Position numbers and translations under genes: made by a program. A stretch of 32,000 nucleotides of DNA, taken from assembly GCA_964638435.1 (NCBI GenBank), contig CAZXAY010000003.1, forward strand, positions 8,431 to 40,430. The letters run 5' to 3'. A model generated the notes under the pieces. That model was not told the DNA's origin. It ran no database searches and was given only the letters and a program-made list of their open reading frames with translations. Origin of the DNA: an uncultured Candidatus Saccharibacteria bacterium. GTDB lineage: Bacteria > Patescibacteriota > UBA1384 > JAMDBS01 > CAZXAY01. The stretch's first letter is position 1; every line of letters begins with the position of its first letter. Below are positions 3,359-30,071 of this stretch, piece after piece.

Positions 3359-3577
3359 TTAATGTTGATGTTGGCAGGATTTAATCATACCGAGTATTGT
3401 TTTTGCTTCTGACTCATCAATTTTATTAATCGCCAAATCTCCATGACAAAGTAGCCAGTCGCCCTTTTTGGCTTTTGGCACAAGAGAAATATCAACTTCC
3501 TTATCACCATCAACAATAACTTTTAGTTTTTCGTTTTTAGTTTTTAGTTTTATTTGTACTGGTGTTGCTAGACACAT
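3359..3577 (-). CDS. hypC: HypC/HybG/HupF-family hydrogenase maturation chaperone-like protein
   Basis: 72 aa. Starts MCLATP (the family begins MCL(A/G)IP with an essential Cys2). GDWLLCHGDLAI..IDE.EA matches the conserved GDxVLVHxGxAI..IDexeA region. Confidence 0.7.
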   Translation of the reverse strand: MCLATPVQIKLKTKNEKLKVIVDGDKEVDISLVPKAKKGDWLLCHGDLAINKIDESEAKTILGMIKSCQHQH

Positions 3578-3672
3578 ATTTACTCCAGTTAATATTGGTT
3601 AATATCTGTTAATAGAAGTTAATATTAGTTATATAACCGTTATTAACAATTTTTAACCATTGTTAACTATTA

Positions 3673-4632
3673 TTAACCTTTCTTCGAAAGGAGTTTACAC
3701 AAATCCACTAATCGATGAGAATAACCCATTTCATTATCGTACCATGCTGTAATGTGAACAAGGTTACTGTCAACAACTTCAGTTAACTCACTATCAACAA
3801 TTGATGAATATGCGCTACCTCTAAGGTCTGATGATACAAGCGGCTCATCACTTACTAATAATATCCCCTGCATCTTGCCGCTAGCATATTCGCGCAAGAT
3901 ATCATTAACTTCCTGTTTAGTTGTTTTATGCTTTACTAAACAAACTAATTCTACCACTGATACAGTTGGAGTTGGCACTCTAAGTGCAATACCATGCATC
4001 TTACCTGCGAGCTCAGGGATTACTTGTGATATAGCTTTAGCAGCCCCAGTAGACGTTGGTATGATGTTTTCTACAGCGCTACGACCACGACGAGGATCTT
4101 TTTTGTGTGGACCGTCTACAAGGTTTTGATCAGCAGTATACGAGTGTACCGTAGTCATCCAACCTTTTTCTATCACAAACTCTTTGTTAATAGCATAGGC
4201 AATTGGCGCAAGACAATTAGTAGTGCACGATCCCATCGAAATTACATTATGTAATTCAGGATCATATTTTTCTTCATTAACACCCATTACTAGAGTTATG
4301 TCTGCGTCTTCCGATGGAGCCGAAATAATTACCTTCTTAGCCCCAGCTTTAATGTGAGCACTGGCAGCTTCTCTTTTAGTAAAAAATCCTGTTGACTCAA
4401 TAACTAGCTCAACGCCCATTTTTTCCCATGGCAACCTAGCAGGATCTTTCTCAGCTAAAAATGCTAGGTTAATATCTTTATCATACTTACCATAAACAGT
4501 ATCATATTTTAATAAATATTTAAGTTGTTCTATCTCGCCTAAATCATTAGCAACCATAATTGGCAACTCACCATCATTTGCACGATAAAAAGTCCTACCT
4601 ATTCTACCAAATCCATTAATGGCTATGTTCAT
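3673..4632 (-). CDS. gap: Glyceraldehyde-3-phosphate dehydrogenase, type I
   Basis: INGFGRIGR NAD-binding motif, catalytic SCTTNCLAP box, WYDNEMGYS near the C-terminus, AGGAGG upstream. Confidence 0.95.
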   Translation of the reverse strand: MNIAINGFGRIGRTFYRANDGELPIMVANDLGEIEQLKYLLKYDTVYGKYDKDINLAFLAEKDPARLPWEKMGVELVIESTGFFTKREAASAHIKAGAKKVIISAPSEDADITLVMGVNEEKYDPELHNVISMGSCTTNCLAPIAYAINKEFVIEKGWMTTVHSYTADQNLVDGPHKKDPRRGRSAVENIIPTSTGAAKAISQVIPELAGKMHGIALRVPTPTVSVVELVCLVKHKTTKQEVNDILREYASGKMQGILLVSDEPLVSSDLRGSAYSSIVDSELTEVVDSNLVHITAWYDNEMGYSHRLVDLCKLLSKKG

Positions 4633-5524: not shown

Positions 5525-5776
5525 TTAAAATTCAAAATTCCCCCACTTCGCTCAATAGAGCTTCGAGGGACAAGCAATTTTTAATTTTTAATCAATGTTC
5601 AAAACTAAAATCTTAAATCTAAAAGTTAAAATTATAGTATTGAGTTTTTAAATTTAAGTTGTGGCTTTAAGTTTTTCGTTTTTACTTTTAAGTTAATAAC
5701 ATTTGAATTTGATCCGCCTAGGCATCGCTTATGGCGAGACTGGTTAAAAATTACAAATTAAAAATTTGAATTTAAA
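5525..5776. repeat. Composite of three hairpin modules filling the proS-tpiA spacer, two with GC-rich cores (5541-5575, 5714-5743)
   Basis: Module 1: aaaattcaaaattcc + ccccacttcgctcaatagagcttcgagggacaagc + aatttttaattttt. Module 2: aaaactaaaatcttaaatctaaaagtt ... aagtttttcgtttttacttttaagtt. Module 3: tttgaatttgat + ccgcctaggcatcgcttatggcgagactgg + ...aaatttgaattt. Confidence 0.75.
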
Positions 5777-7099
5777 TTACTTCATTAAGTAATTAATTAC
5801 ATCCTTTATCTCCACCAACTTCCCTTTTTCTTGATCACGTTTTTTAATTTCCACTGAATTCTCTTGTAATGTCCTCTCACTTATAATTATTCGCGTTGGG
5901 CAACCAATCAAATCAGCATCAGCGAACTTTTCCCCAGCACTAACTTCCCGATCATCATATAAAACTTCAACCCCAGCATCATATAGCTGATTATATAATT
6001 TCTCTACCTTAGTTTTTGGTTTTGAGTTTTGCTTGTCCCGCGAAGCTTTAGCGGAGTGGGAAGTTTTTAATTCTATCAGATGTACCTGATATGGTGCTAC
6101 CGATTCAGGCCAAACAATCCCTTTGTCATCATAATTACTCTCCACGATCGCACCCATATTTCTGCTAATACCAATCCCATAACAACCCATCAATACTGGC
6201 TGCCTTTGCCCTTTATCATCAATAAAATAATAATTAAATGATTTAGAAAATTTATCGTTGAGCTTAAATATGTTACCAACCTCAATGGTTCTATCAATTT
6301 TTCTGAGCTTTTTATTACCACACTGGGGACATACCCCCTTTTGTTTACCCTGACCTGCCCCGAGTATTCGCGAGGGGGCTGTGTCAAAGGGCTTCTCAGT
6401 AATCTCTTTATTAACTGCAATATTACATTTGTCACATACATGAATTTCATCTTCACCCGCCTCACATGGAACCTGAAATTCATGAGAATATTTACTAAAA
6501 GTTCCACCTGAGGCAAATGTTAAATAAACCTCTTTAAAACCTAACCTTTTAAAGATTTTAACGTAAGCTTTAGTCGCTTTTTCGTAATATTTATCAAGAT
6601 CTTCACTATCTTTATGAAATGAATATAAATCCTTCATCAAAAATTCTCTACCGCGGAGTAAACCTGATTTTGCCCTCACCTCATTACGAAATTTGTTTTG
6701 AATTTGATACACATAACGCGGTAAATCTTTGTAGGAACTAGCAAATTGTTGAACAAGTGGGGTTATAACCTCTTCATGGCTTTGATTTAGCACAAATTCA
6801 CTACCAGAATAAAGTTTTGTTTTAAAAAGTACATCAATATTCTCGCGACCAGTTGTCTTATATTTCTCAATTGATGTCAGAGTTGGCATTAATACCTCTA
6901 CACCACCAATATTATTAATTTCTTCCCGAACGATGTTCTCTATCTTTCTAAGAACCTTTAAACCTAATGGCAAAAAGGTATAAACTCCAGCCATTTCTTT
7001 ATCAATAAACCCACCTTTAATTAAAAGTTGGGCATTTAGTGATGTTTCCTCTTTTGGCACATTTTTTCGGGTTTTAGTAAAAAGCTGACTTAGTTTCAT
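5777..7099 (-). CDS. proS: Prolyl-tRNA synthetase (short form without large editing insertion)
   Basis: Class II motifs FRNEVRAKSGLLRGREFLMKDLYSFH and GCYGIGISR, CxxC...CxxC zinc ribbon, C-terminal anticodon-binding-like domain. Confidence 0.92.
   Translation of the reverse strand: MKLSQLFTKTRKNVPKEETSLNAQLLIKGGFIDKEMAGVYTFLPLGLKVLRKIENIVREEINNIGGVEVLMPTLTSIEKYKTTGRENIDVLFKTKLYSGSEFVLNQSHEEVITPLVQQFASSYKDLPRYVYQIQNKFRNEVRAKSGLLRGREFLMKDLYSFHKDSEDLDKYYEKATKAYVKIFKRLGFKEVYLTFASGGTFSKYSHEFQVPCEAGEDEIHVCDKCNIAVNKEITEKPFDTAPSRILGAGQGKQKGVCPQCGNKKLRKIDRTIEVGNIFKLNDKFSKSFNYYFIDDKGQRQPVLMGCYGIGISRNMGAIVESNYDDKGIVWPESVAPYQVHLIELKTSHSAKASRDKQNSKPKTKVEKLYNQLYDAGVEVLYDDREVSAGEKFADADLIGCPTRIIISERTLQENSVEIKKRDQEKGKLVEIKDVINYLMK
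6011..6068. repeat. In-frame repeat module inside proS (encodes KTSHSAKASRDKQNSKPKT)
   Basis: agtttttggttttgagttttgc + ttgtcccgcgaagctttagcggagtggg + aagttttt. The core is near-identical in pattern to intergenic cores at 5541-5575 (reverse orientation), 22623-22666 and 29970-30020. Confidence 0.75.
6325..6392. repeat. GC-rich in-frame module inside proS (encodes FDTAPSRILGAGQGKQKG)
   Basis: Contains acctgccccgagtattcgcgagggggct. It shares the ACCTGCC(C/T)CG word with gatA 28468-28479 and 28877-28887, and with the reverse complement of 19793-19804. Confidence 0.55.
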
Positions 7100-7103
7100 A
7101 ATT

Positions 7104-7189
7104 TTGTGTTAATCTCCACCAATCATATCTCACTAATTTCACTAACAATATTTTTAGTGAAATTCGTGTAAAAATATTAGTGGAGTTTA
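7104..7189. repeat. About 85-bp hairpin element (family ttgtgttaatctYcaccaatc ... atattagtggagttta), copy 1
   Basis: Ends match the copy at 11913-11993. Internal cactaat/attagtg and ttcactaa/ttagtgaa pairings. Lies between the rseP stop and the proS start. Confidence 0.8.
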
Positions 7190-7221
7190 AATCATTATCA
7201 TTCTATTCTGATTATATCAAA

Positions 7222-8274
7222 CTACCTATTCATTATCCACTTTATAATATCCTGATAGGTTACCAGAGCCATTAAAATTAATAAAAAGATAAAACCAAGC
7301 CAGTGTAAAAAATTTTCTACTTCCGACTTAACAACCTTTTTACCACCAATTCCTTCGAGAACCAAAAATACTAATCTTCCTCCGTCAAGCGCTGGCAATG
7401 GCAAAATATTAAAAAATCCAATAACAATCGAAAGTAAGGCAATAAATCTTAAGACATACAACCAACCAAAACCCACTACTTGGTAAAGTAAAGCAAATAC
7501 TCCGATTGGCCCCGATACTGCCTCAGTAGGAGCCTTAACAGAAGTAAACACCGAACTAATCAATTTCCAAATAAATAATAAATTAAGCCAAATTACCGAA
7601 CCAATTTCTTTGATTGCCTCTATTGGCGCCGTATACCATGGACCCTTGTTAATTTTGCCACCAGTTTCCGCCATGGAAATACCCAGTGGAGCTGTTGCAT
7701 TATTACTTAGTGTAGCTTCTTTGACAATTTCCTTATTAAAACGCTTAATTTTAATTACTATTTTTTCGCCCGAATGCGCAATATTATATTTTGTTACATC
7801 TTCAGCACTAGAAAATACTTGATCATTAATATTGATGATAAAATCATTAGCTCTGATATCTACTAATTGCGCCGGATACCCTTTTTCTACTCCAGTTATT
7901 ACAATTTGATTGGGTAATTCGCTAGGTAAAACCCAAAACCAAATAGTCATTAAAACCCAAGCTAGTACTAGATTTAAAATCACTCCAAAAGTAACAATTT
8001 TGATACGATTCCAAACACTTGCATTAGAAAATGACTTTGGATGATTAATATGCTCTTCTTCGCCAAGCATAGCGCAATACCCACCAATTGGTATAGCATT
8101 AATTGCATAAGTAGTTTCTTTAATCTTCTTTTTCCAAATAGTTGGCTTAAAACCAAAAGCAAATTCCTGAACCTCCACTCCAGCACGCTTAGCCATTATA
8201 AAATGACCAAACTCATGCACCATCACAAGTAAGCCGATAGTAAAAAGAAAGATTATTATAGTAAGAATTAACAT
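7222..8274 (-). CDS. rseP: RIP metalloprotease RseP (site-2 protease, M50)
   Basis: HEFGHF (HExxH) in the first TM region, central PDZ-like segment, C-terminal FNILPLPALDGG motif. Confidence 0.88.
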   Translation of the reverse strand: MLILTIIIFLFTIGLLVMVHEFGHFIMAKRAGVEVQEFAFGFKPTIWKKKIKETTYAINAIPIGGYCAMLGEEEHINHPKSFSNASVWNRIKIVTFGVILNLVLAWVLMTIWFWVLPSELPNQIVITGVEKGYPAQLVDIRANDFIININDQVFSSAEDVTKYNIAHSGEKIVIKIKRFNKEIVKEATLSNNATAPLGISMAETGGKINKGPWYTAPIEAIKEIGSVIWLNLLFIWKLISSVFTSVKAPTEAVSGPIGVFALLYQVVGFGWLYVLRFIALLSIVIGFFNILPLPALDGGRLVFLVLEGIGGKKVVKSEVENFLHWLGFIFLLILMALVTYQDIIKWIMNR

Positions 8275-8960: not shown

Positions 8961-9047
8961 AAAAACTTAAAACGTAAAACTCAAATGTTCATAAATTTTA
9001 ATTTTTAAGTTGTAATTTTTTAGATTTTAGTTTTTACTTTTAAGTTT
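8961..9047. repeat. AT-rich 'ttttagtttt/aaaactaaaa' word hairpin between pyrH and frr
   Basis: aaaaacttaaaacgtaaaactcaaa pairs with tttagattttagtttttacttttaagttt. Confidence 0.7.
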
Positions 9048-9756
9048 AATTTATGACTGTCCCTACATCTTCTCCCATTGCAGCTTTAACAATATTATCT
9101 CGCCCAAATATATTAAAAACCTTAATGGGTATGTGATTCTGTTGACAAATTTTAAATGCTTCTTGATCCATCACCTTTAAATTTTGGTCTATTGCCTCTT
9201 GATAAGATAGCCTATCATATTTCTTTGCATTTTTATTAATCATTGGATCAGCACTATAAACTCCATCGACTTTAGTACCCTTTAATATCATATCACAATT
9301 TAACTCATGTGCTAAATTTGCACTGATAGTGTCTGTAGAAAACCTGGGTTTCCCCATTGCTACAGAAATTATGATTTTATTATCTTTTAAATCTTTGTTC
9401 GTTTTATCTAAATCAAACTTTTCAATTATTTCTTGGTATGAATAAAATGAAACAATCTGTGATTTTTTATTAAATCGATTTTCTAACGCATATTTTAAAA
9501 CTATTCCATTTAAAATAGTAGCATTCAGCCCTATCCAATCTGCTTCTTCTTGCTTTAAGAATGAAAGCTTATTTTCTCTGCCACGATAAATGTTTCCTCC
9601 ACCAACTACTACAATAATTTCTATCCCTTTATTGCTTATTTGCGTAATTTCTTGTGCATAGTTTAAAATCTTCCTATCATCAAAAAATTCACTCTTATCA
9701 CTTGAGGCAAACACCTCTCCTGAGAGTTTAAATAAAATTCTTTTTGATTTATCCAT
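9046..9756 (-). CDS. pyrH: UMP kinase
   Basis: ILFKLSGEV and VVGGGNIYRG amino-acid-kinase motifs, correct size, synteny with tsf and frr. Confidence 0.9.
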   Translation of the reverse strand: MDKSKRILFKLSGEVFASSDKSEFFDDRKILNYAQEITQISNKGIEIIVVVGGGNIYRGRENKLSFLKQEEADWIGLNATILNGIVLKYALENRFNKKSQIVSFYSYQEIIEKFDLDKTNKDLKDNKIIISVAMGKPRFSTDTISANLAHELNCDMILKGTKVDGVYSADPMINKNAKKYDRLSYQEAIDQNLKVMDQEAFKICQQNHIPIKVFNIFGRDNIVKAAMGEDVGTVIN

Positions 9757-10776: not shown

Positions 10777-10976
10777 ATAACCTCCTTAAATTATCTAATT
10801 TCTAATTGACCTAATTGCACTAAATAAATTCCAAATCCCAAGCACCAAATTACAAATAATTTTTAAAATATCAATTATCAAATTCTTAATAAGAAAAAAT
10901 ATTTGTCCCAGTTTTAATCATTGTAATTTAAGTAATTATAATTTATTTGAGATCTGTTATTTGAAATTTAATATAA

Positions 10977-11135
10977 TAGACTTGTTACGTAATAATTTTT
11001 GTAGCGAAAGCTAAGGATTTTGAGTGAAAATAATGAAGAGTGAGCAAGTTGTAACAGAGTTACACTGACGAACTATGAATTATTTTTTAACCAAAATTCT
11101 TAGTTTGCAGTAAAAATGTTATTTCGTAATAAGTC
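10977..11135. mobile_element. MITE-like element, copy A (159 bp), in the rpsB-tsf spacer
   Basis: About 95% identical to 19726-19914 apart from a 30-nt insertion in that copy. Imperfect terminal inverted repeats tagacttgttacgtaataa... / ...ttatttcgtaataagtc(ta). Flanked by TAA/TAA (10974-10976, 11136-11138). Confidence 0.8.
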
Positions 11136-11146
11136 TAAGGTTATAT

Positions 11147-11899
11147 TTATTCTTCAGATTTTTCTGTTTTAGTATCTTTTTTATCTTCAACTACTTTATC
11201 AGATTTTTTTTCTAAATCTTTTTTCGCTCCAACTATAGTTTCTGCGATTAAATTCATAACTATTTCTACTGAAGATTTAGCATCATCATTAGCTGGGATA
11301 AACCAATCAACTTTGTTTGGGTTGGCATCAGTATCACAAACTGCAACTATCGGAATATGTTTCTTTTTTGCTTCACTGACGGCATTATGCTCTTTAACAG
11401 GATCAATAATTAATAGATAATCAGGTAATTCCTTCATTTTTCTAATACCATCGTAAATCTCTTTTTGTTTATTAACTTCTTTATCGAGTAGTGTTCGTTC
11501 TTTTTTAGTTAAGTCAGAACTCTCATCAGCTATCTTTGCCTCTGAATCTTCTAAATATTTTATGCCCTTACGAATGGTTTCAAAATTGGTAAGAATTCCT
11601 CCTAACCATCTTTGAGCAATATATGGCATTTCACTCTTAACAGCTGCATCTTTTACAGATTGTTTAATTTGTTTTTTTGTCCCAACAAATAAAAATACTT
11701 TGCCTATTTTTACTTCTCTTACAATAAATTCTAAAACAAGCTTTAAGAATTCTTGAGTTTTAGTTAAATCAATTACATTAACACCATCACGTAATCCAAA
11801 AATATACTCTTTGGCCTTAGGATGTGAGTGCTCTTTTTTATGACCAAAATGCATACCTGCTAAAAACATTTCTTTAATTTCGGGGATTTTTACTGACAT
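11147..11899 (-). CDS. rpsB: 30S ribosomal protein S2
   Basis: MHFGHKKEHSHPKAKEYIFG..., QRWLGGILTNF, acidic/lysine-rich C-terminal tail. Confidence 0.95.
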   Translation of the reverse strand: MSVKIPEIKEMFLAGMHFGHKKEHSHPKAKEYIFGLRDGVNVIDLTKTQEFLKLVLEFIVREVKIGKVFLFVGTKKQIKQSVKDAAVKSEMPYIAQRWLGGILTNFETIRKGIKYLEDSEAKIADESSDLTKKERTLLDKEVNKQKEIYDGIRKMKELPDYLLIIDPVKEHNAVSEAKKKHIPIVAVCDTDANPNKVDWFIPANDDAKSSVEIVMNLIAETIVGAKKDLEKKSDKVVEDKKDTKTEKSEE

Positions 11900-11912
11900 C
11901 TTATAATCCTTA

Positions 11913-11993
11913 TTGTGTTAATCTTCACCAATCTTTTTGCACGAATTTCACGAAATATTAGTGATATTAGTGTAATGATATTAGTGGAGTTTA
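11913..11993. repeat. About 85-bp hairpin element, copy 2 (same family as 7104-7189)
   Basis: ttgtgttaatcttcaccaatc ... atattagtggagttta. Lies between the rpmE stop and the rpsB start. Confidence 0.8.
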
Positions 11994-15089: not shown

Positions 15090-16652
15090 TTAAACTTTTA
15101 ACTTATTATTAAGTATCTCATTTACAACTTGTGGATTAGCTTGCCCCTTACTCTCCTTCATCACGCATCCAACTAAAAATCCTACAATTTGAGTTTGACC
15201 GCCTTTTATTTTAGCCACCACGTCAGGATTTTTACTAATAACTTTCTCCACAATTTTTTCTAACTCACCAATATCAGAAATTTGTTCTAAACCTCTTTCT
15301 TTAATAATCTCTGATGGTTTTTTACCTTTATACAACTCTGACAAAATTTCTTTAGCTACTGATTTAGAAATTTTTCCAACTTTAATAGTACAAATAAGTT
15401 CTACAAACCATGCTGGGTTAATAGAAAAATCTTTGATATCGTTAATTATCCAAACAGCTAATTCAACTTTTGAATCGTCTGATATTAAATTTGCACATTT
15501 ATCAAATAATTTTGATCGCTCGCTATCAGATATAATCAAATTAGCATCAATTTTATTTAAACCAAATTTATTTTGATATCTATCTAAAACCTCTTCAACA
15601 GTCTCTGGTAATTGCTTAATAATCTCATTTATATTAATTATGTTTTTAGTTTTGAATTTTGGATTTTGGATTTGTTTAGAATTTAGAGTTTCGTGCTTAG
15701 AGTTTCCACCAATTACTACTGGTGGAAGATCTGGTTCCGGAAAATACCTATAATCAGCACTAGTTTCTTTAACTCGCATTATATAGGTTTTGTTTTTTAC
15801 CTCATCCCAACCGCGGGTTTCTTGAACAATTTTACCACCATTTTCAATCTCATCAATTTGTCGCTCAAGCTCAAATTCAATCGCCTTTTCAACTGATTTA
15901 AATGAATTAAGATTCTTAACCTCAACTTTAGTCCCAAATTCCTTTTGCCCTATTGGTTTAACGGAAATATTCGCTTCGCAACGCATTTGTCCCTTTTCCA
16001 TATCAGCGTCTGATACATCAAGCTTGCGAAGTCGCAATTGATAGCTCTGGCAAAACAATTTAGCAATTCTACCAGCCTCATCAATTGGCAAAGTTACAGC
16101 GTCCGTGACCAATTCCATTAGCGGTACGCCAGCCCTATTATAATCCATCAATGAGTAATCTACATCTGCCCTACCCTCCGGGTGTTTGCTTGTCCCAGTA
16201 TCTTCTTCCAAATGAATTCTGGTTATTCCAAAAGTTATTAGTTTTTCGTTTTCAGTTTTTAGTTTGAGCAAACCGCCAGTAACAATTGGTAAATCATATT
16301 GAGATATCTGATATCCTTTTGGTAAGTCTGGATAAAAATAGTTTTTTCGATCCCATTTAGTAAAGGTAGCAATATTGTCGGCTTTTTTATTATTTAAATA
16401 TAATCCAGTTTTTATGGTCATTTCAATCGCCTGTTTATTAAGTACAGGCAACATTCCAGGCATTCCCAAACACACCGGACAAATATTCATATTTTGTTCA
16501 GTTGGTTTAGATTCGCGTCTATTCGTGTTTTCATTCGGCATTATTCGTGTTGTGCTATTTGCACACGAGCAGAACATCTTTGACTGTGTTTTAAGCTCTG
16601 CATGAATCTCCAGCCCAATCACCGCTTCATATTTTTGATTGCTTTTTTTCAT
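15090..16652 (-). CDS. gatB: Asp/Glu-tRNA(Asn/Gln) amidotransferase subunit B
   Basis: YEAVIGLEIHAELKT, GMPGMLPVLN, RIHLEEDTG, YRYFPEPDLPP, C-terminal YqeY-like domain. Confidence 0.93.
   Translation of the reverse strand: MKKSNQKYEAVIGLEIHAELKTQSKMFCSCANSTTRIMPNENTNRRESKPTEQNMNICPVCLGMPGMLPVLNKQAIEMTIKTGLYLNNKKADNIATFTKWDRKNYFYPDLPKGYQISQYDLPIVTGGLLKLKTENEKLITFGITRIHLEEDTGTSKHPEGRADVDYSLMDYNRAGVPLMELVTDAVTLPIDEAGRIAKLFCQSYQLRLRKLDVSDADMEKGQMRCEANISVKPIGQKEFGTKVEVKNLNSFKSVEKAIEFELERQIDEIENGGKIVQETRGWDEVKNKTYIMRVKETSADYRYFPEPDLPPVVIGGNSKHETLNSKQIQNPKFKTKNIININEIIKQLPETVEEVLDRYQNKFGLNKIDANLIISDSERSKLFDKCANLISDDSKVELAVWIINDIKDFSINPAWFVELICTIKVGKISKSVAKEILSELYKGKKPSEIIKERGLEQISDIGELEKIVEKVISKNPDVVAKIKGGQTQIVGFLVGCVMKESKGQANPQVVNEILNNKLKV
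15642..15704. repeat. In-frame AT-word module inside gatB (encodes NSKHETLNSKQIQNPKFKTKN)
   Basis: gtttttagttttgaattttggattttggatttgtttagaatttagagtttcgtgcttagagtt. Shares the tttagaatttaga and ggattttggattt words with gatA 28495-28533. Confidence 0.75.
16510..16550. repeat. In-frame 'attcgtgtt' word module inside gatB (encodes TRIMPNENTNRRES)
   Basis: gattcgcgtctattcgtgttttcattcggcattattcgtgt. The same cacgaat/attcgtg words occur in the intergenic hairpins at 7104-7189 and 11913-11993. Confidence 0.6.
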
Positions 16653-16721
16653 AATTCATAATTCCCTGCCCGCCATCGCAAGCTCAGGCGTTGCGGGCGT
16701 GGCTAATTCATAATTCTGAAT
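16653..16721. repeat. GC-core hairpin (16664-16703) flanked by direct aattcataattc words
   Basis: aattcataattc + cctgcccgccatcgcaagctcaggcgttgcgggcgtgg + ctaattcataattc. Core stem gcccgc/gcgggc. The core resembles 5714-5743 (reverse orientation) and 19774-19803. Confidence 0.8.
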
Positions 16722-19399: not shown

Positions 19400-20140
19400 C
19401 TAATACCTCCATTATTTCCCAGCTAAATTCATTTAATTTATGCTTGGAATGTTGTTTTATTAAACCATAATAACTTGACGCATTATTTATGTTTAGCCTG
19501 CTCTTAATCCTTTTTAAATTTCGTTTGTTCAAACTCCTTTTATCTGGGTATATTACAACTCCTAAAAATTTTATTCCGCGCCTAGCTTTAACTATAATGT
19601 CATTTTTTAAATTAATCTTTAAAAGTAAACTATTTTCTATAAACCTAATTGTATTTTCTCGTATTTCTTCTAATTTAGCAAGATCCTTATCTAAAATTAT
19701 AAAATCATCTCCATAGCGCAAATATTAGACTTGTTACGTAATAATTTTTGTAGCGAAAGCTAAGAATTTTGAGCCCGCCTTGACTCGGATCAGGCGAGGC
19801 AGGTGAAAATAATGAAGAGCGAGGAAGTTGTAACAGAGTTACGCTGACGAACTATGAATTATTTTTTAACCAAAATTATTAGTTTGTAGTAAAAATGTTA
19901 TTTCGTAATAAGTCTATTGTTTTATTTTTAATTTATGTTTAATAAACCTGTCTAACTCGTTCAAATAAATATTGGCAAAAATCTAACTAGTTAGGTTGCC
20001 AATTGGCAAGCCCTTTCTATTAAGACCCCCCCCCAATGTCTGTTGAATTGTCATTCTGAGCTTGCGAAGAATCTCTATTATAACCATCAATAACAAAATT
20101 GATTATCTTTTTAACATTTGGACAATCAACTCGTCTAAAA
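19389..20140 (-). pseudogene. DGR-type reverse transcriptase, decayed (5'-truncated, frameshifted, nonsense codon, split by MITE)
   Basis: My minus-strand translation gives ...RRVDCPNVKKIINFVIDGYNRDSSQAQNDNSTDIGGG (frameshift in the G9 run) LNRKGLPIGNLTS*IFANIYLNELDRFIKHKLKIKQ | MITE | YLRYGDDFIILDKDL...FLGVVIYPD...SSYYGLIKQHSKHKL. This covers RT motif 4 with the DGR-typical IGxxxSQ (Q codon is TAG here), motif 5 YGDD, and motifs 6-7. Confidence 0.8.
19726..19914. mobile_element. MITE-like element, copy B (189 bp), inserted in the RT gene, carrying a nested 30-nt GC hairpin (19774-19803)
   Basis: Same termini as copy A, flanked by TAT/TAT (19723-19725, 19915-19917). Deleting 19726-19917 (192 nt) joins ...KHKLKIKQ to YLRYGDDF in frame. 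Confidence 0.85.
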
Positions 20141-20161: not shown

Positions 20162-21283
20162 TTAAAGTCCAATGGTTTGTGGTAACATTACCGAGGAGCG
20201 AACGCCGGAGCCGGAAACGCCGAGATTGTCCCCGCTCAAATCAGCCTGACAGCCGTAGCGATCCCAACGGCAGACCGGCGCCCCACCGGAAACCAAAGAA
20301 GCTATTAAATAACAAGCTCTTGCTTGATCATCTATTTGCTGGTTAGTTTGTTGTAAATGAATAATTGCATAAATTAACCAATCTTGGATAACTAAACCCA
20401 TTTCATTAGCATATTGGGGATCTTCTTGAAGTTTTTTCAGATAATCTATTGGTGATTGGTTGGCTTCCAATTGTTTCCTTGCCTGACCTGAGCTATGTCG
20501 AAGGGTTTTACCCTGACCCTTTGCTGGTAAGTCTGGCAAATTTTCTATCAGTTTAATAGACCAGCCATTAGTGGGCTTAACTTTGTTAAGATACGCTTGA
20601 TATTGTTTATTCTTTTCTTTAGTAATTCCAGTAAGAAGCTCATTAAGGGTAAAACCTTTAAAGCTTGGATCAGTAAAGTCTTTGGGGTAATAGGTCATTT
20701 TAGTATTGCCATCTTGGTCTTCTTGATCACAATTAAGGTATCCATCCCAAATAAAGATTGGATCAAATTTAGTAGAATCATTATCATCTTCTTTGAGTTC
20801 TAAGGACGAGCCATCTGTAGATAGGAGTTTACCTTCTTTATGTTTTTTAATGATTAACTGTTTGTATCTTGATATTAGTATTTCCAGTGGTAGAACCATA
20901 GGAGTAAGAAGCAATTTAGTAAATCCTTGAGATTCTTTAAGTTCAAGTATTTGCAGTTGTTCGGGGGTGATTTGGGAAAGGATTTCTTCATAGGTGGGAA
21001 TAGGATATTCTTTGATTTTAGTACTGTCATGGGGGTCAACTCCAAGAACACCAATATCTTGGCAGTCTAGGAGTATGTCAATAACTCCTGTTTCATTAAG
21101 AGTTTTAACTTGGGACTCCCATTGAACTTTAAGCTGGAGCTTTTCTGAAAGAGCTTCTAGTTTAACTTGATGCTCAGTTTTTTCTGGAGTATCAGTAAGG
21201 CTGAGATCCTTCGCTCCACTAAGACTAACATCGGGTTGAGTTTCTTGAGCTTGATTAAATTGTTGGGGTAATTGTTCGGACAT
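20162..21283 (-). CDS. Candidate DGR variable protein, paralog A (373 aa)
   Basis: Paralogous to 22752..23816 over most of its length. The C-terminal ~40 codons are GC-rich, A-poor and hyperdivergent, ending in a conserved VMLPQT. The stop lies about 20 nt from the RT remnant. Confidence 0.75.
   Translation of the reverse strand: MSEQLPQQFNQAQETQPDVSLSGAKDLSLTDTPEKTEHQVKLEALSEKLQLKVQWESQVKTLNETGVIDILLDCQDIGVLGVDPHDSTKIKEYPIPTYEEILSQITPEQLQILELKESQGFTKLLLTPMVLPLEILISRYKQLIIKKHKEGKLLSTDGSSLELKEDDNDSTKFDPIFIWDGYLNCDQEDQDGNTKMTYYPKDFTDPSFKGFTLNELLTGITKEKNKQYQAYLNKVKPTNGWSIKLIENLPDLPAKGQGKTLRHSSGQARKQLEANQSPIDYLKKLQEDPQYANEMGLVIQDWLIYAIIHLQQTNQQIDDQARACYLIASLVSGGAPVCRWDRYGCQADLSGDNLGVSGSGVRSSVMLPQTIGL
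20193..20311 (-). other. Putative variable region (VR) of paralog A
   Basis: Roughly two-thirds G+C by eye, in a ~30% GC genome. In the 75-nt core, A is the rarest coding-strand base (8/75 by my count). Bounded 3' by a block identical to paralog B (ggtttgtggtaacattacc, 20174-20192). Confidence 0.6.
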
Positions 21284-21287
21284 AATA

Positions 21288-21974
21288 TTATTTTGAATTT
21301 AATTTTAATAAAAATAACAGTTCTGGAATTAGTTGATCTTTTATCCAAATTTTTTGTTTACTATCAACAACCTCACCCAAACTATGTAAAATGTTGATAT
21401 TTGATTTTTTTTCTAACAACTTTATGATTTCTTTTAAATACTCTTTAGTATTTTTACCTGTTCTCAATTTTATAATATTTTCATTAATAGGCCAATTATT
21501 TTTTAAGAAAAAATATACATCAAACAAATCTCGGTTAGCGAGTTTTTTCCTATCCAATACGGCTACCAATTTATTAGCAAAAATACAATCTTTTGTCATA
21601 GTTAAAATTGGCAATCCTAAATAATTTTTTATCTCAAAAGTATTTTCATTAATCAATCTTGTAGAAATTTCTATCTTAATATTATGGGCCTCATTTTTGT
21701 ATGACAATAAAAAGTAAATCGTATTAGCTTTTATTTTTTTGTCCTTTATTTCTCCAATGTCTACTAAAATTCCTAATAACTTTTTGAATACAAAATCGAC
21801 TCTGTCTAACTGCGACAAATTAAAATCTAAGTCGGTAGAAAACCTAGGTAAGTTATAAAAAAGATAACAAGCCGTCCCGCCTTTAAAACCTAAAATTGGC
21901 GCTAGATCTCTATCAGAATAAATAGCATATAATATTTTGCTTAACACTACTTCATGTTCCTTTTTATCAAGCAT
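21288..21974 (-). CDS. AbiEii-family nucleotidyltransferase toxin (pair 1)
   Basis: GFKGGTACYLFYNLPRFSTDLDFN signature. Overlaps the upstream AbiEi-like gene by 8 nt. Paralog of 25203..25913. Confidence 0.8.
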   Translation of the reverse strand: MLDKKEHEVVLSKILYAIYSDRDLAPILGFKGGTACYLFYNLPRFSTDLDFNLSQLDRVDFVFKKLLGILVDIGEIKDKKIKANTIYFLLSYKNEAHNIKIEISTRLINENTFEIKNYLGLPILTMTKDCIFANKLVAVLDRKKLANRDLFDVYFFLKNNWPINENIIKLRTGKNTKEYLKEIIKLLEKKSNINILHSLGEVVDSKQKIWIKDQLIPELLFLLKLNSK

Positions 21975-22554
21975 ATAATTTCCTTAATTTAGCTAATTTT
22001 TTTTCTAAACTCTTATTATCATAAATTTTAACTATTTCACTGCAAATCTGCCAATCAATTTTTGCCAAATTGTCAAAATAAAAATCACCATATAGGTATA
22101 GGGTGTCGAGCAAGGCTCTCTCACAAGACGCAACATCATAATTCTCCTTTCTTACAATTCCACTTGAATTTAATAATACTGAATCTTTGATTTTTTTATA
22201 AACATATTTTTGTTTATCAATTATAATTTCTTTTGATAATTTAGAAATAGAATAAATTGCGCTATCATATTGGAATATTATTCCCGCCCTTAATAAAACA
22301 GTTTGTAAACTAATATATGATGGAATAATTATTTTATTTGCAAGTTCATCTTTTAAATAATTACTATCAATTGCATACAATCCATTTCTTACTCTATTTA
22401 GTTGGCCATTTTTGACTAACCGATATATTTTAGTTTTTAAATAATTTGGCTCAGGTATTTGCCAAATTAAAATTAGGTCTTTAGTACTAAAAACCGTTTT
22501 TTTACTTTTTAACAGTAGTGTTATAGAATTATCTATCATATGTTTGTATCTCAT
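21967..22554 (-). CDS. AbiEi-family antitoxin/transcriptional regulator (pair 1); true start probably the ATG at 22539
   Basis: N-terminal wHTH-like region (TKDLILIWQ...YRLVKNGQLNRVRNGLY), C-terminal ...CERALLDTLYL. Aligns with pair 2 from MIDNS. Confidence 0.75.
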   Translation of the reverse strand: MRYKHMIDNSITLLLKSKKTVFSTKDLILIWQIPEPNYLKTKIYRLVKNGQLNRVRNGLYAIDSNYLKDELANKIIIPSYISLQTVLLRAGIIFQYDSAIYSISKLSKEIIIDKQKYVYKKIKDSVLLNSSGIVRKENYDVASCERALLDTLYLYGDFYFDNLAKIDWQICSEIVKIYDNKSLEKKLAKLRKLYA

Positions 22555-22574: not shown

Positions 22575-22751
22575 ATTTATATTATACATCCTAATAAATA
22601 TACTTGCAACTTTTGGCACCTCGCCCCACTTGTCCCGCGTAGCTTTATGCGAAGTGGGAAGACGGGTTTATTTACCAAATTATTCAATTGAAAAAAAATC
22701 TTTTTTAAAGTTCAAAATTAAAGGTTAAATATTAAAATCAAAATTCAAAGT

Positions 22752-23816
22752 TCAATTGGTTTGTGGTAACATTACCACGGGACGGGAACCGCAGTCCCCG
22801 TACGAGAAGTCAGGGAAGTCTCCGTACAAGTCCGCCCGACGGTTGTCGCGACTCCAATAGTAGCGCAGCACTTTGCCAGCTAGGTATGATCCAGTTAACC
22901 AACAAGCTTTCCCTTTGCTTCGCCAGTCATCTATTTGCTGATTGGTTTCTTGTAATTGGGTAATAGCGTAAATGAGCCAACTTTCTAAGGTTAAACCTTG
23001 TTCGTGGGTATATTGTGGGTCTGTTTGGAGTTGGTTTAGATAATCTATTGGGGTTTGGTTGGCTTCTAATTGTTTTCTTTCATTAAGGGTTTTGCCTTGG
23101 TTTTGGGCAGGTAAATCAGGGTTGTCTTCGATAAATAGTATTTGCCAACCATTAGTGGATTTAAGCTTATCAAGTCTTAGTTGATGTTGGTGATTATTAG
23201 CTTTTCCTGATATTAATTCTGATTTAACAAAGCCTTGGTGATTATCTTTATCAAATTGCTCTGGATAGTAAATTAGTCTGCCATCAGTGTCAGCATTCTT
23301 AATATCATCCCAAACATAGACTGGGTCAAATTTAGTAGAATCATTATCATCTTTTTTGAGTTCTAAAGACGAGCCATCAGTAGCTAAGAGTTTACCTTCT
23401 TGATGTTTTTTAATGAGTAATTGCTTGTATCTATCGATTAAGGTTTCAAGGTGCGCGCCAATTGGAACTAGTAGCATTTTAGTAAAGCCTTGTTCTTGTT
23501 TAGTTTCTAATACTTTAAGTTGTTCTGGGGTAATTTTAGATAAGATTTCTTCATAGGTGGAAATAGGATATTCTTTGATTTTAGTACTGTCATGGGGGTC
23601 AACTCCAATAACACCAATATCTTGGCAGTCTAGGAGTATGTCAATAACTCCTGTTTCATTAAGAGTTTTAACTTGGGACTCCCATTGAACTTTAAGCTGG
23701 AGCTTTTCTGAAAGAGCTTCAAGACGTAGGAGGTGTTCAGATTCTCTTGTTTCGGTGTTAGTCTGAGATAAGTCTGGGTCAGTCGGTATTAAGTTGTAAG
23801 GCAATTGTTCTGGCAT
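22752..23816 (-). CDS. Candidate DGR variable protein, paralog B (354 aa)
   Basis: Same family as 20162..21283, with a GC-rich hypervariable C-terminus ...LRYYWSRDNRRADLYGDFPDFSYGDCGSRPVVMLPQTN. The W...RA...P...G(x)RPVV pattern resembles C-type-lectin/FGE-type DGR VR scaffolds. Confidence 0.75.
   Translation of the reverse strand: MPEQLPYNLIPTDPDLSQTNTETRESEHLLRLEALSEKLQLKVQWESQVKTLNETGVIDILLDCQDIGVIGVDPHDSTKIKEYPISTYEEILSKITPEQLKVLETKQEQGFTKMLLVPIGAHLETLIDRYKQLLIKKHQEGKLLATDGSSLELKKDDNDSTKFDPVYVWDDIKNADTDGRLIYYPEQFDKDNHQGFVKSELISGKANNHQHQLRLDKLKSTNGWQILFIEDNPDLPAQNQGKTLNERKQLEANQTPIDYLNQLQTDPQYTHEQGLTLESWLIYAITQLQETNQQIDDWRSKGKACWLTGSYLAGKVLRYYWSRDNRRADLYGDFPDFSYGDCGSRPVVMLPQTN
22777..22901 (-). 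other. Putative variable region (VR) of paralog B
   Basis: GC-rich, with 14/75 A on the coding strand in the core. Bounded 3' by the identical block ggtttgtggtaacattacc (22758-22776). Confidence 0.6.
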
Positions 23817-23820
23817 AATA

Positions 23821-25095
23821 TTATTTTAGATTTAATAACCACTTATAAGTTGGCAAAACTTTTATTGTTTTATTGTTAATATTAATTATTTTTTCTTTAT
23901 CAGTTGTTAATATTATACTACTTTTAAGATCTAGCTCATCCATTGCTTGAATTAATGCCTTTATTTCTCTTTCTCTCGTATCGGTTTTTTCGATACTTTC
24001 ACAAACCTGAATTAATTCTATTATATCCCTTCCTTTTCTAATAACAAAATCAACTTCTAAATTATTTTTTGTTTTATAGTAATAAATTGAGTCGCCTCGC
24101 CGCTTAAGCTCAATAAAAACCATATTTTCCAAAAATTTTCCACTATTTTTAGAAAAACTAAATGAAATGGCGTCAGCAAGCCCGTTATCAATTGAATATA
24201 TCTTTTTAGGCGCAATAAATTGTTGTGAAACTTTATAAGAAAAAATATTCACTGTAAAAAATAAGTAACTATTTTCAAAATAATCTGTATAGCTTTTTAC
24301 CGTATTAACACTACCCAATTTTAAAATTTCTTTTAATTTATTAAAGGAAGTTAAGTTTCCCAGGTTACTAAAATAATATAACGCTAATTCGCGAAGTGAT
24401 TTTACTTCCTGAACATCATAACGAGTTACAATGTCACGATACAAAATATCTTCGTAAATTCTTTTTAAAATATCTTTATTTTCAAACTTTAAATATTCTG
24501 GTAATCCACCAGATTTTAAATATTGGTTGAAATATGATTTTAATTTTGCTCTTTCTTTAGTATAAGATGTGGCATTACTTGGTACTATATATCCCTTAAA
24601 ATCAAGATATTCTCTAAAAGAAAACGGATATAGTTCATAAGGAATATATCGACCCGTTAATTTTGTGCCCAACTCACGACTCAACATTGAGGCATTGGAG
24701 CCTGTTAAGTAAAATTTGAAACCTTTATCCTGCATTCTTCTAACAAAATTTTCCCAACCAATAATATTTTGAATTTCATCAAAAAAGAAAACTGTTTTTT
24801 CTCCAAACAATTCTAACAATATTTCATATAACTTATTAAAATCTTCTTTTTGAAAATTAATTAATCGTTCATCCTCAAAATTAAAATAATAACACTTGTT
24901 CTTATAAAATTTATTCATTATCTGCATTAATAATGTTGATTTACCCACTCTTCTTAAGCCAGAAATAACGATACTATGTGGAATTTTCAATGATTCCTCT
25001 AATTTAAGCATTGTATCTCTTTCAATCCCCACATCTTTTTTTTCTAAATCTTTGGCTTGCTCCATGATTATTTCTTTAAGTAAATTTAAATCCAT
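23821..25095 (-). CDS. AAA-type ATPase with DUF4143-like C-terminus
   Basis: Walker A GLRRVGKST, Walker B FFFDEIQ, 424 aa. Architecture typical of the COG1373-type 'ATP-binding protein'. Confidence 0.8.
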   Translation of the reverse strand: MDLNLLKEIIMEQAKDLEKKDVGIERDTMLKLEESLKIPHSIVISGLRRVGKSTLLMQIMNKFYKNKCYYFNFEDERLINFQKEDFNKLYEILLELFGEKTVFFFDEIQNIIGWENFVRRMQDKGFKFYLTGSNASMLSRELGTKLTGRYIPYELYPFSFREYLDFKGYIVPSNATSYTKERAKLKSYFNQYLKSGGLPEYLKFENKDILKRIYEDILYRDIVTRYDVQEVKSLRELALYYFSNLGNLTSFNKLKEILKLGSVNTVKSYTDYFENSYLFFTVNIFSYKVSQQFIAPKKIYSIDNGLADAISFSFSKNSGKFLENMVFIELKRRGDSIYYYKTKNNLEVDFVIRKGRDIIELIQVCESIEKTDTREREIKALIQAMDELDLKSSIILTTDKEKIININNKTIKVLPTYKWLLNLK

Positions 25096-25140
25096 ATATT
25101 CCTCAATGTTTTCGCTACTAATGCAATTATATCATTAATT

Positions 25141-25161
25141 GTTTTCATTGTCAATGAAAAC
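25141..25161. promoter_or_regulatory. Perfect 21-bp palindrome gttttcattg-t-caatgaaaac between AbiEii pair 2 and the ATPase gene
   Basis: 10-bp arms around a single central base, 46 nt upstream of the ATPase start. Confidence 0.4.
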
Positions 25162-25202
25162 ATTCATAATGTTAATTTATGATTGTTCAAACATAATAAT
25201 CA

Positions 25203-25913
25203 TTATTTAATAACTGATTGATAATTTTTAAGCATAAAAACTGTTTCTAATTTTAATTTATTTTTAACCCAAATTTTTTCTTTTTCACCTAATAGCTCTC
25301 CAAGTCCTTGTAAAATTTGATTATTTTCTATCTTTTCTATCTCAACAATACAATCAGATAAATAGTTTTTAATGTTTTTCCCTGTTCTATTCTTGATTAT
25401 TTCAAGGTCGATATCCCAACTATTTTTGCTAAAATAATAGATATCATAAACATCACGCGTAACCACTCTACTTCGTTGAGTTAATGCCACTAGTTTACTA
25501 GCAAAAAGATAGTTTTTTTTAGCAATTAACATTGAAATACCAAGATATTCTTTTAATTCATAATGATCTCTAATATTTTTGATAAGTTTTCTAATATTAA
25601 TTTCAATCTTAATATTGTGATCACCATCACCATAGGAAAGAAGAAAAAAAATAGTATATCTTTCTATTCGCTGGTCTTTTACTTCGCCATATTTTTTTAA
25701 AATAGCTAATATCTTTTTAAATAATATCTCGACAATTAATTTATCAGCAGTTAGTAAATCAAAATCTAAATCCACTGAAAATCGTGGTAAATTATAGAAA
25801 AAATAGGCGCAGGTACCGCCCTTAAACCCTAAATACGATGAAATAGACATATCACTATAAATGTCCTTTAATATTTGACCCATAATTAATTGGTGATTTT
25901 CTTTATTTAACAT
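25203..25913 (-). CDS. AbiEii-family nucleotidyltransferase toxin (pair 2)
   Basis: GFKGGTCAYFFYNLPRFSVDLDFD signature. Overlaps the upstream antitoxin gene by 11 nt. Confidence 0.8.
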   Translation of the reverse strand: MLNKENHQLIMGQILKDIYSDMSISSYLGFKGGTCAYFFYNLPRFSVDLDFDLLTADKLIVEILFKKILAILKKYGEVKDQRIERYTIFFLLSYGDGDHNIKIEINIRKLIKNIRDHYELKEYLGISMLIAKKNYLFASKLVALTQRSRVVTRDVYDIYYFSKNSWDIDLEIIKNRTGKNIKNYLSDCIVEIEKIENNQILQGLGELLGEKEKIWVKNKLKLETVFMLKNYQSVIK

Positions 25914-26475
25914 AGTTTTGATGATATTTATTTAAACGTTTAATTAATTGTTGATTATCATAAATCTTAACTAATTCAAAACATTTTTGCCAATCAAGTG
26001 GTTGGAGATTGTCAAAATAGTATTCATCAAAAAGGTAAAGCGTATCCAAAAAAGCTCTTTCTGGTGATGCGATGCTATAGTTACCTTGATTAATTATTCC
26101 ATTTGAATTATATAATAAGTTATTTTTTAGTTTTCTAAAATTAATAGAATGCTTATCAACAATTATCGTTTTTGACCAAGGACCGACAACAAAAATTGTA
26201 TCATAATGTTGAAAGATAATGCCAGCCCCTCGCAAAACAGTTTCGAAACTAATATATGATGGGATATAAATACTTGTGGCTAATTCTTTGGAATCATAAT
26301 TTCTGTCTTTAGCAAATATGCCTCTAGTAAGTCTGATTAACAAACCTTTTTTTATGTAATAGTAAATTTTAGCTTTCAAATTTTTCGAATTAGTTTCTTG
26401 CCAAATTAAAGCTAGATCTTTATTAGTCAAGATTGTTTTGGGATTCTGATAGAGTTTAGCAATTAGATTATCCAT
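25903..26475 (-). CDS. AbiEi-family antitoxin/transcriptional regulator (pair 2)
   Basis: Paralog of 21967..22554 (NKDLALIWQ..., ...PERAFLDTLYL). Confidence 0.75.
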   Translation of the reverse strand: MDNLIAKLYQNPKTILTNKDLALIWQETNSKNLKAKIYYYIKKGLLIRLTRGIFAKDRNYDSKELATSIYIPSYISFETVLRGAGIIFQHYDTIFVVGPWSKTIIVDKHSINFRKLKNNLLYNSNGIINQGNYSIASPERAFLDTLYLFDEYYFDNLQPLDWQKCFELVKIYDNQQLIKRLNKYHQNYVK

Positions 26476-29949: not shown

Positions 29950-30071
29950 ATTATTTAAAAATTATTTATCCCACGAAACTTTCTTGACCAGCGTAGCATT
30001 AGCGAAAGTAGTGAAGTGGGAAAAAATTGAATTTTGAATTTGTTTTGTACCTAAAATACAAAAAAAATATA

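Follow-up and report, generated by a model that had tools for sequence, protein, structure and literature searches.

Two GC-rich islands within a prolyl-tRNA synthetase gene (proS) are probably insertions of miniature noncoding hairpin repeats that belong to one superfamily of 24 to 30 nt, dispersed and, within genes, translated. The gene lies in a 32,000-nt stretch (contig CAZXAY010000003.1; here called the window) from an uncultured "Candidatus Saccharibacteria" bacterium. The observations comprise insertions, a repeat family, nesting of copies, copies that lie in frame in many genes, and a patchy occurrence at orthologous sites. As read from the sequences, the superfamily has a common plan, with a 5′ CYTG, a C-rich stem, a sheared G·A mismatch pair (GA/GA or GWA/GAA), a second stem that is short, and a loop that varies. 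The initial annotation of this DNA, which had described both islands as modules lying in frame and likened one of them to intergenic sequence, was correct and understated; the core's recurrence across phyla, the nested structure of the second island, the gatA modules and gatB inserts, and the sister types of hairpin were all missing from it.

The window is AT-rich (31% G+C), with almost all genes on the minus strand. Its proS open reading frame (ORF; positions 5777 to 7099, minus strand) hosts both inserts and encodes a 440-amino-acid prolyl-tRNA synthetase (ProRS) with Pfam domains tRNA-synt_2b and HGTP_anticodon. The product has the same sequence as EKD56689.1 of the AMFJ01 "uncultured bacterium" assembly, and its relatives are Patescibacteria proteins of about 405 to 416 amino acids.

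The core of the first insert (site 1; positions 6032 to 6061, plus strand) is a 30-nt hairpin, here called type A, with the sequence CTTGTCCCGCGAAGC-TTTA-GCGGAGTGGGA and halves CTTGTCCCKCGWAGC-loop-GCGAAGTGGGA. The element is antisense to proS and encodes S347 to K356 (SHSAKASRDK); the translation, KTSHSAKASRDKQNSKPKT, falls at the start of the anticodon-binding domain, after VHLIEL and before VEKLYNQL, where it had first been placed. The plus strand at 6031 to 6063 (gcttgtcccgcgaagctttagcggagtgggaag) matches the reverse complement of 5541 to 5575 (gcttgtccctcgaagctctattgagcgaagtgggg), and the sequences and coordinates first reported for this match proved exact. The 17-mer GCTTGTCCCGCGAAGCT, allowing up to three mismatches, occurs at 5559 to 5575 (minus), 6031 to 6047 (plus), and 22628 to 22644 (plus), that is, three times in the window versus 0.01 expected from shuffles. 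Outside proS, type-A copies occupy the proS-tpiA spacer (5541 to 5574, minus; apical stem extended as GCTC-tatt-GAGC) and an intergenic site about 90 nt downstream of the ORF at 22752 to 23816 (22629 to 22659, plus), and a degenerate copy at 29962 to 30024 (plus) holds a second degenerate copy in its apical loop. A covariance model of type A scored 52.9 bits at 6029 to 6064, 52.3 bits at 22626 to 22662, and 48.2 bits at 5538 to 5577, all three being part of its training alignment, and also picked up 29962 to 30024 (15.5 bits; E about 0.005). The resemblances previously noted at 22623 to 22666 and 29970 to 30020 were thereby both recovered, the latter as the degenerate copy. Words of the agttttt type flank the insert, as had been remarked, with tagtttttggttttgagtttt g on the 5′ side (6011 to 6031, plus; encoding QNSKPKT) and agtttttaattcta on the 3′ side (6062 to 6075, plus); they belong to a dispersed family of AT-rich words (D2, D5, and D6), and the TTTGAGTTTTG flank also precedes a type-A copy at another locus (L023).

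The proximity and inverted orientation of the proS and spacer copies might suggest that the former arose in place, the intergenic copy 450 nt away being its source through gene conversion or duplication, with the AT-rich words common to their flanks as possible microhomology. This origin is very improbable. The proS copy differs from its neighbor at the K position and in the length of the loop (TTTA versus TCTATTGA), and it is nearer the consensus of copies from other genomes, with which it agrees at 29 of 30 positions. The same element is found in unrelated genes of other genomes, and the second island has no local donor.

Comparison with orthologues supported insertion at both sites. An alignment of 25 ProRS sequences was used, and 120 orthologues were examined for the presence of inserts. 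Both inserts are missing from the closest relative (P0002; 80% identical by BLASTP and about 86% over conserved columns) and from 23 other aligned sequences, and almost all of the 120 orthologues lack them, which agrees with the in-frame insertion of an intergenic repeat family implied by the initial annotation. Between the invariant cysteine pairs, EKPFDTAPSRILGAGQGKQKG stands in place of four residues (NDQN) in P0002, and the loop after VHLIEL is 9 to 10 residues longer in the window protein. In a codon alignment with the syntenic proS-tpiA locus of the closest relative (L001), the window has an additional 51 nt at the second site (site 2) and 27 nt at site 1; site 1 without the exact 30-nt core amounts to 12 codons versus 13 in L001. 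The proS-tpiA spacer of that relative is 98 nt long and contains no GC cores or element copies; the window spacer has two GC cores and measures 264 nt. Among distant orthologues with extra residues at either site, the DNA was read at three loci (L002, L122, and L123), and in all three the insert is the same kind of element, the opposite of residues conserved in lineages that lack the repeats; the remaining inserts are known as peptides only.

In an AlphaFold model of the window ProRS built on the alignment (predicted template modeling score, 0.80), the only internal segments with a predicted local distance difference test score below 50 were residues 239 to 252 and 350 to 361, which are the two inserts, a sign that the protein tolerates them at these places. 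Since the loops at both sites vary in length among ProRS of this clade, the segments could in principle be lineage-specific adaptive loops whose likeness to intergenic DNA is coincidental. That explanation is barely credible given the DNA-level identity with intergenic copies, the copies that other genes carry in different frames and orientations, and a chance expectation of 0.01 to 0.03.

The second GC island (6353 to 6380), which encodes APSRILGAGQGK and had rightly been placed between the two cysteine pairs (C222/C225 and C257/C260), consists of two elements, one inside the other. The inner element (6354 to 6377, plus strand) is a 24-nt copy of type C, a sister type of type A with the plan CYTG-CCCC-GAG-loop-CGAG-GGGG. 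It reads CCTG-CCCC-GA-GT[ATTC]GC-GA-GGGG (CCTG-CCCC-GA-GTATTCGC-GA-GGGG) and encodes P242 to G249 (PSRILGAG), with boundaries ambiguous by 1 to 2 nt. It splits an outer element into a 5′ part (6344 to 6353, plus; TTTACCCTGA), which encodes QGK, and a 3′ part (6378 to 6391, plus; GCTGTGTCAAAGGG), which encodes PFDTA, so that the outer 24 nt encode PFDTAQGK. The window codons are CCC TTT GAC ACA GC[C CCC TCG CGA ATA CTC GGG GCA GG]T CAG GGT AAA, with the inner copy in brackets; those of L122 (CCC TTC GAC ACG GCT CAG GGT AAA) and L123 (CCC CTC GAC GCG GCT CGG GGC AAG) contain the outer element only, as an uninterrupted 24 nt, and L001 and L002 have no residues at this position. In reverse complement, the L123 element is CTTG-CCCC-GA-GCCGCGTC-GA-GGGG. 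The inner copy in the window sits after CCCTGA of the outer copy, and in nested type-A pairs at three other loci (L060, L024, and L082) the inner copy lies at the equivalent place, CGCGA^...^AGCC. Insert 2 is thus best read as a 24-nt type-C copy that landed in an older, decayed 24-nt copy. The leader CCTGCCYCG occurs four times in the window versus 0.03 expected; gatA has two of these occurrences, and proS and a spacer have one each.

Placed on a distance tree of ProRS, the carriers of the outer element are the window lineage, P0041, P0059, and the pair P0080 and P0110, and in each it occupies the same E|Q codon junction. The nearest relatives of each carrier lack it, and this scatter implies at least three gains at one junction or, alternatively, repeated seamless losses. 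The site-1 loop holds unrelated inserts in eight other ProRS (known as peptides only), and in L002 it contains a CCTGCCCCG...GGGGA element with TTTTGATTTTTG words on its flanks. Judged by these recurrences, the site-1 loop and the E|Q junction would both be insertion hot spots.

The setting of the second hot spot was also noted. The window ProRS lacks the INS editing domain, and a four-cysteine knuckle occupies its position; all 25 aligned ProRS of the clade lack this bacterial domain and have instead the invariant residues C222, C225, C257, and C260, which apparently form a zinc knuckle. The inner and outer inserts of island 2 fall in the tip of this putative knuckle.

Type A is widespread outside the window. 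The pattern CTTGTCCCKCGWAGCT, which leaves the right half GCGAAGTGGGA outside the query, was scanned across one genome per GTDB species and returned chance matches in GC-rich genomes plus dozens of loci that continue past the pattern with a loop and GCGAAGTGGGA. Copies with this independent right half numbered 47, the window included, and at least 44 near-identical copies lie in other metagenome-assembled genomes (MAGs), with more than one copy in several carrier loci. According to the depositors' labels, the carriers are mainly Patescibacteria (Zambryski-, Roizman-, Levy-, Uhr-, Jorgensen-, Peri-, and Saccharibacteria and Parcubacteria), with others labeled Bacteroidia, Rikenellaceae, Verrucomicrobiota, Gammaproteobacteria, Lentisphaerae, and Rickettsiales and one Nanoarchaeia MAG (DPANN). 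The minimal form is 30 nt long, CTTG-TCCCKC-GWA-GC-TTTA-GC-GAA-GYGGGA, and longer forms gain complementary bases in the apical stem (GCTC-gaa-GAGC, GCTCT-gaatta-AGAGC, and GCTCTTTAC-gaa-GTAAAGAGC). The proposed pairing is satisfied in 93.6% of cells, versus 44 to 56% when the partner is slid. At the gathering threshold, neither the window nor 17 loci matched any Rfam 15 family, and relaxing the search to E values of up to 10 on two copies returned only noise. Literature searches by DNA sequence, peptide, and keyword (Patescibacteria or candidate phyla radiation, with REP, MITE, RAYT, or RPE, as defined below) found no description of the element, subscription journals being outside their coverage. 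Perfect palindromes of the form CCTGCCTGC(G)GCAGGCAGG also recur in carriers (L070, 4439 to 4460; L103, 1828 to 1846; L056, 3057 to 3085; L064, around 6555) and perhaps represent another branch of the hairpins with a CCTG leader.

At least 10 type-A copies and at least 4 CCTG-type copies lie within ORFs; the type-A copies, which are in long ORFs, are in frame. Gene names for the type-A copies were taken from reading the translations, with Pfam not applied. In-frame type-A copies were found in ileS (IleRS; L084), rnhB (RNase HII; L062), a glutamate-dehydrogenase-type gene (L060), a methyltransferase gene (L027), and genes for a PduO-type adenosyltransferase (L097), a glycosyltransferase (L070), and a DUF45-like hydrolase (L023), as well as in the N-terminal region of DNA polymerase I (polA; L111). 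The miaA gene has type-A copies at two different sites, in L042 and in L098, and L042 is empty at the site filled in L098. The L060 gene, which carries one of the nested type-A pairs, also holds three tandem GFTLKEVHPE repeats, an in-frame expansion of a different kind.

In long ORFs, the type-A length is 30 or 33 nt in every case; intergenic lengths also include 31, 32, 34, 35, 37, 38, 41, and 43 nt. Four frames of the element are in use, and the third frame of each strand holds a stop. Elements antisense to the gene encode SHFAKASRDK or PTSLKLRGT, and those in the sense direction encode LVPRSFSEVG or LSREALAKW; in most coding copies, the strand that can form the GA hairpin is antisense to the mRNA. 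This pattern of length and frame is the signature of insertions that translation has filtered. It also bears on the idea that the inserts are present in DNA but not in mature protein, through ribosome bypass of the byp kind or through removal from RNA. GC-rich hairpins in an AT-rich coding context do resemble the yeast mitochondrial byp system, but every long-ORF copy is a multiple of 3 nt and free of stops in frame, whereas intergenic lengths vary. Such multiples of three and stop-free frames are expected only if the copies are translated, and bypass or RNA removal is accordingly a highly doubtful explanation.

Another possibility is that the hairpin is a nucleic-acid signal selected by the host (for example, a terminator, an element that confers stability, a site for protein binding, or a signal for DNA uptake) and accumulates through its usefulness, with coding copies as tolerated by-products. 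Its sequence conservation across phyla is striking, some intergenic copies cap terminator-like stems with T runs after them (for example, L107 and L092), and the GA-stabilized hairpin is possible on one strand only. Yet copies appear as clean insertions of 24 to 30 nt rather than through point mutations, they nest in one another, their orientation relative to genes follows no preference, and most coding copies have the GA-hairpin strand antisense to the mRNA. No Rfam family was matched, even at E values of up to 10. In 308 kb of other Patescibacteria DNA, around 80 loci with genes resembling those for repetitive extragenic palindromic (REP)-associated tyrosine transposases (RAYTs), no type-A copies were found, and the element is therefore no clade-wide requirement. 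Overall, a host-selected signal seems unlikely as the primary explanation.

With regard to the insertion of mobile hairpin repeats, transposition of single-stranded hairpins in trans, as for REPs, is most likely the mechanism, with low confidence in the enzyme step. Places of insertion would be AT-rich spacers, coding DNA, and the loops of other hairpins, whether terminators or further copies. In genes, the survivors would be the copies that add a multiple of three, offer a stop-free frame, and fall in a place that the protein tolerates, and these would be translated as extra surface loops. An unlinked enzyme of the HUH/tyrosine-transposase type would move the elements in trans, as folded single-stranded DNA, as has been proposed for REPs. 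On sequence grounds, only the CYTG strand could form the hairpin stabilized by G·A pairs, and its complement would carry pyrimidine mismatches. Nested copies were found in proS island 2, at 29962 in the window, and in L060, L024, and L082; type-A copies sit in the loop of a terminator-like stem in L107, L092, and L064, and the Bacteroidia element is enclosed by a conserved CCCCC...GGGGG outer stem. The two flanks of type-A copies pair with each other in stems of at least 6 bp in 15% of copies versus 4% of controls. Nesting and flank pairing together suggest integration into the unpaired loops of hairpins, that is, into single-stranded DNA.

The mobilizing enzyme was sought and not found, which makes the enzyme step the weakest. 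No Y1 (single-tyrosine transposase) homologue was present in the window, whose genome of origin is incomplete; no TnpA, TnpB, or IS91 transposase was seen near copies; and no vector was matched among PLSDB plasmids or INPHARED phages, with one IMG/VR contig as the only match. Genes for RAYT-like Y1 proteins do exist in Patescibacteria (Pfam Y1_Tnp; with NCBIfam REP_Tyr_transpos, the match falls below the cutoff), and a Y1_Tnp gene adjoins proS in L123. That gene is flanked by TTTACGAGGCT(T/A)AGCCTC(A/G)TAAA hairpins, with copies at 3625 to 3650, 4190 to 4215, and 4405 to 4430, one of which sits in frame inside the RAYT-like gene itself (LYEAKPRKV) in a segment missing from the L098 homologue. 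A REP within its own RAYT-like gene is a precedent in this clade for in-gene insertion of a hairpin. The RAYT-like Y1 enzymes examined were rejected as movers of type A; the hairpins on their flanks in L123, in L098, and in the metagenome loci whose flanks were examined (66 of 80) are other, perfectly palindromic REPs.

Several results weigh against transposed hairpin insertions as the explanation. None of the 80 metagenome loci, spanning the same 308 kb, had a type-A copy near its RAYT-like Y1 gene, and an all-against-all ORF comparison of the 47 carrier loci revealed no recurrent neighbor gene. No consistent target-site duplication was detected (direct repeats of at least 6 nt in 10% of copies versus 3% of controls), and neither the flank analysis nor the comparison of filled and empty sites revealed a conserved target sequence. 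Copies showed no orientation bias relative to neighboring genes (18 versus 15), a bias that a replication-coupled single-strand mechanism might be expected to produce. Formal covariation of type A was weak, because the sequences hardly vary and the search pattern had already fixed the left half; folds of single copies had no significant advantage over shuffles, and the case for the structure therefore rests on the comparative data. REPs are known only as lineage-specific repeats, and the near-identity of 30 nt across phyla is unusual for them; a host-level function or another mechanism could account for it. Translation of the inserts is inferred from their intact frames.

Related hairpins were found elsewhere in the window and in carrier loci. 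A generic scan for hairpins with a C-rich stem, GA, loop, GA, and stem, made in 664 kb of AT-rich loci, in which the abundance of type C was also judged, found 63, of which 7 were preceded by CYTG versus 0.4 expected. It added type-C copies in L019 and L123, and copies of type B (CCTG-CCCT-GA-GCGCAGTC-GA-AGGG, encoding PFDCAQGR) occur in L019 and L062. Intergenic hairpins in the window include one with a CCTGCCTCG leader (19770 to 19807, minus strand) and a CCTG-CCCGC...GCGGG hairpin (16660 to 16710, plus) whose fold was the best in the set (z = −3.0). The second GC core of the proS-tpiA spacer (5713 to 5745, minus) reads directly as CCAGTCTCGCC...GGCGGA and, by resemblance, would belong with the CCTGCCTCGCC type at 19770 to 19807.

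Two other genes of the window bear similar inserts. Relative to solved GatA structures, gatA (28333 to 29949, minus) has three, two of which hold CCTGCCTCG cores flanked by AAAAACT-type words and read in frame. One core (28877 to 28901, plus; SFSTTLEAG), with AT words on its flanks, lies in a 15-amino-acid insert, and the other (28469 to 28489, plus; PSVGEAG) lies within a 27-amino-acid insert; the CCTGCCTCG leader is common to these two inserts and proS island 2. The third insert, of about 10 amino acids (KNLKLKTKN), is encoded by AT words. In gatB (15090 to 16652, minus), comparison with solved GatB at the protein level showed a 15-amino-acid insert between zinc-ligand cysteines (STTRIMPNENTNRRESKP) and a 26-amino-acid insert between domains (GGNSKHETLNSKQIQNPKFKTKNIIN), and an AT-word repeat lies within the gene at 16233 to 16270. 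Such AT-rich heptad words (AGTTTTT/CGTTTTT runs; D2, D5, and D6) occur at 3518 to 3555, 5656 to 5693, 9015 to 9052, 16233 to 16270, 28186 to 28223, and 29163 to 29200, in spacers and in ORFs, where they encode LKLKTKN-like stretches, and GC cores are often embedded in them.

Other repeats were also noted. The palindromic AT-rich region directly upstream of proS (7098 to 7201; I5) has a 42- to 48-nt motif (TTGTGTTAATCTCCACCAATC...TTTCAC) in common with the spacer at 11911 to 11958 (D20 and I4), and the motif could be a shared promoter or operator. A 74-nt unit is perfectly duplicated in tandem at 1011 to 1158 (D7). A repeat of about 190 nt has two copies, 90 to 96% identical, at 10973 to 11161 and 19722 to 19940 (D4, D8, and D15), in spacers 8.8 kb apart and with internal inverted segments (I1 and I3). 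Duplicated gene cassettes at 20162 to 22554 and 22752 to 26475 (D1, D3, D10, and D17) each contain a paralogous ORF of 354 to 373 amino acids followed by a pair of ORFs of about 230 and 190 amino acids. The large ORFs end in segments of 60 to 63% G+C (20185 to 20302 and 22769 to 22858) that differ strongly between the paralogues and were compared as possible variable regions of diversity-generating retroelements. At L111, a reverse transcriptase gene (6816 to 7739) encoding the motif LGNLTSQ, typical of diversity-generating retroelements, lies about 2 kb from the type-A copy; their closeness is probably a coincidence.

Patescibacteria genomes are among the smallest and most streamlined of bacterial genomes, yet selfish hairpins would have entered two to three essential translation genes (proS, gatA, and probably gatB) of a single window. 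Such inserts offer a concrete, datable source of lineage-specific protein loops in Patescibacteria alignments and may affect gene calling and homology scoring in these genomes; the elements could also mark recent DNA exchange in groundwater communities. Their near-identity across phyla, nesting in hairpin loops, and use of identical junctions make REP-like target choice and the identity of the mover directly testable. A bolder proposal is advanced only tentatively, namely that a previously undescribed superfamily of CYTG hairpins with G·A pairs is spreading nearly unchanged across ultrasmall bacteria, other phyla, and possibly DPANN, with a preference for hairpin loops and hot-spot codon junctions, and is moved by neither a linked transposase nor the examined RAYT-like enzymes. 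If so, the mover would be either a new enzyme that acts in trans or some process of the host, for example, repair or replication.

[quoted passage not shown] Palindrome-associated transposable elements (PATEs) derived from IS200/IS605 and rolling-circle elements of the IS91 type share hairpin ends, the lack of target duplication, and a short specific adjoining sequence. IS91 targets CTTG or GTTC, which resemble the CYTG leader, a likeness to be taken as a lead only. PATEs and IS91-type elements run to hundreds of bases and have left and right ends that differ from each other; CYTG here belongs to the inserted DNA and not to a preexisting target. DNA uptake sequences (USS/DUS) are overrepresented short motifs that arise by substitution, are shared within a lineage, and go with a competence receptor. 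The motif studied here is overrepresented; however, its copies appear as insertions, and none were found in the 308 kb of other Patescibacteria DNA. Yeast mitochondrial GC clusters and byp elements are also short GC-rich hairpins that spread in an AT-rich genome, coding regions included. The byp elements are GC rich and not translated and need not be in frame; the lengths in ORFs here are always multiples of three, the host domain is another, and no sequence relation is known.

The closest parallels are with REPs and with Rickettsia palindromic elements (RPEs). It has been proposed (PMC3337134) that REPs are moved in trans by RAYT transposases. The REP/REPIN-RAYT system and the present elements have in common imperfect hairpins of 20 to 40 nt, a conserved 5′ tetranucleotide beside the stem, and many dispersed copies, and neither has terminal inverted repeats, target duplication, or coding capacity. 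They differ in that the leader here is CYTG rather than GTAG, the stem contains tandem G·A mismatches, and copies are frequent in genes, contrary to the extragenic criterion, and near-identical across phyla; in addition, no RAYT flanked by these hairpins was found, and the examined RAYT-like genes carry other REPs. RPEs, reportedly described by Ogata and colleagues in 2000, are said to be palindromic elements of about 100 to 150 bp, confined to Rickettsia and inserted in frame in housekeeping genes. Both they and the present elements are selfish palindromic repeats that lie in frame in conserved genes of a small AT-rich genome, are absent from some orthologues, and are translated as extra surface segments; unlike RPEs, the elements here are 24 to 30 nt long, nested, and found under labels from many phyla, mostly Patescibacteria. 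By analogy with these systems, the elements would best be classed as REP/RPE-like miniature hairpin repeats, REP-like in anatomy and RPE-like in behavior, and unusual in that no transposase was found for them, in their nesting, in their conservation across phyla, and in their recurrence at hot-spot junctions in essential genes.

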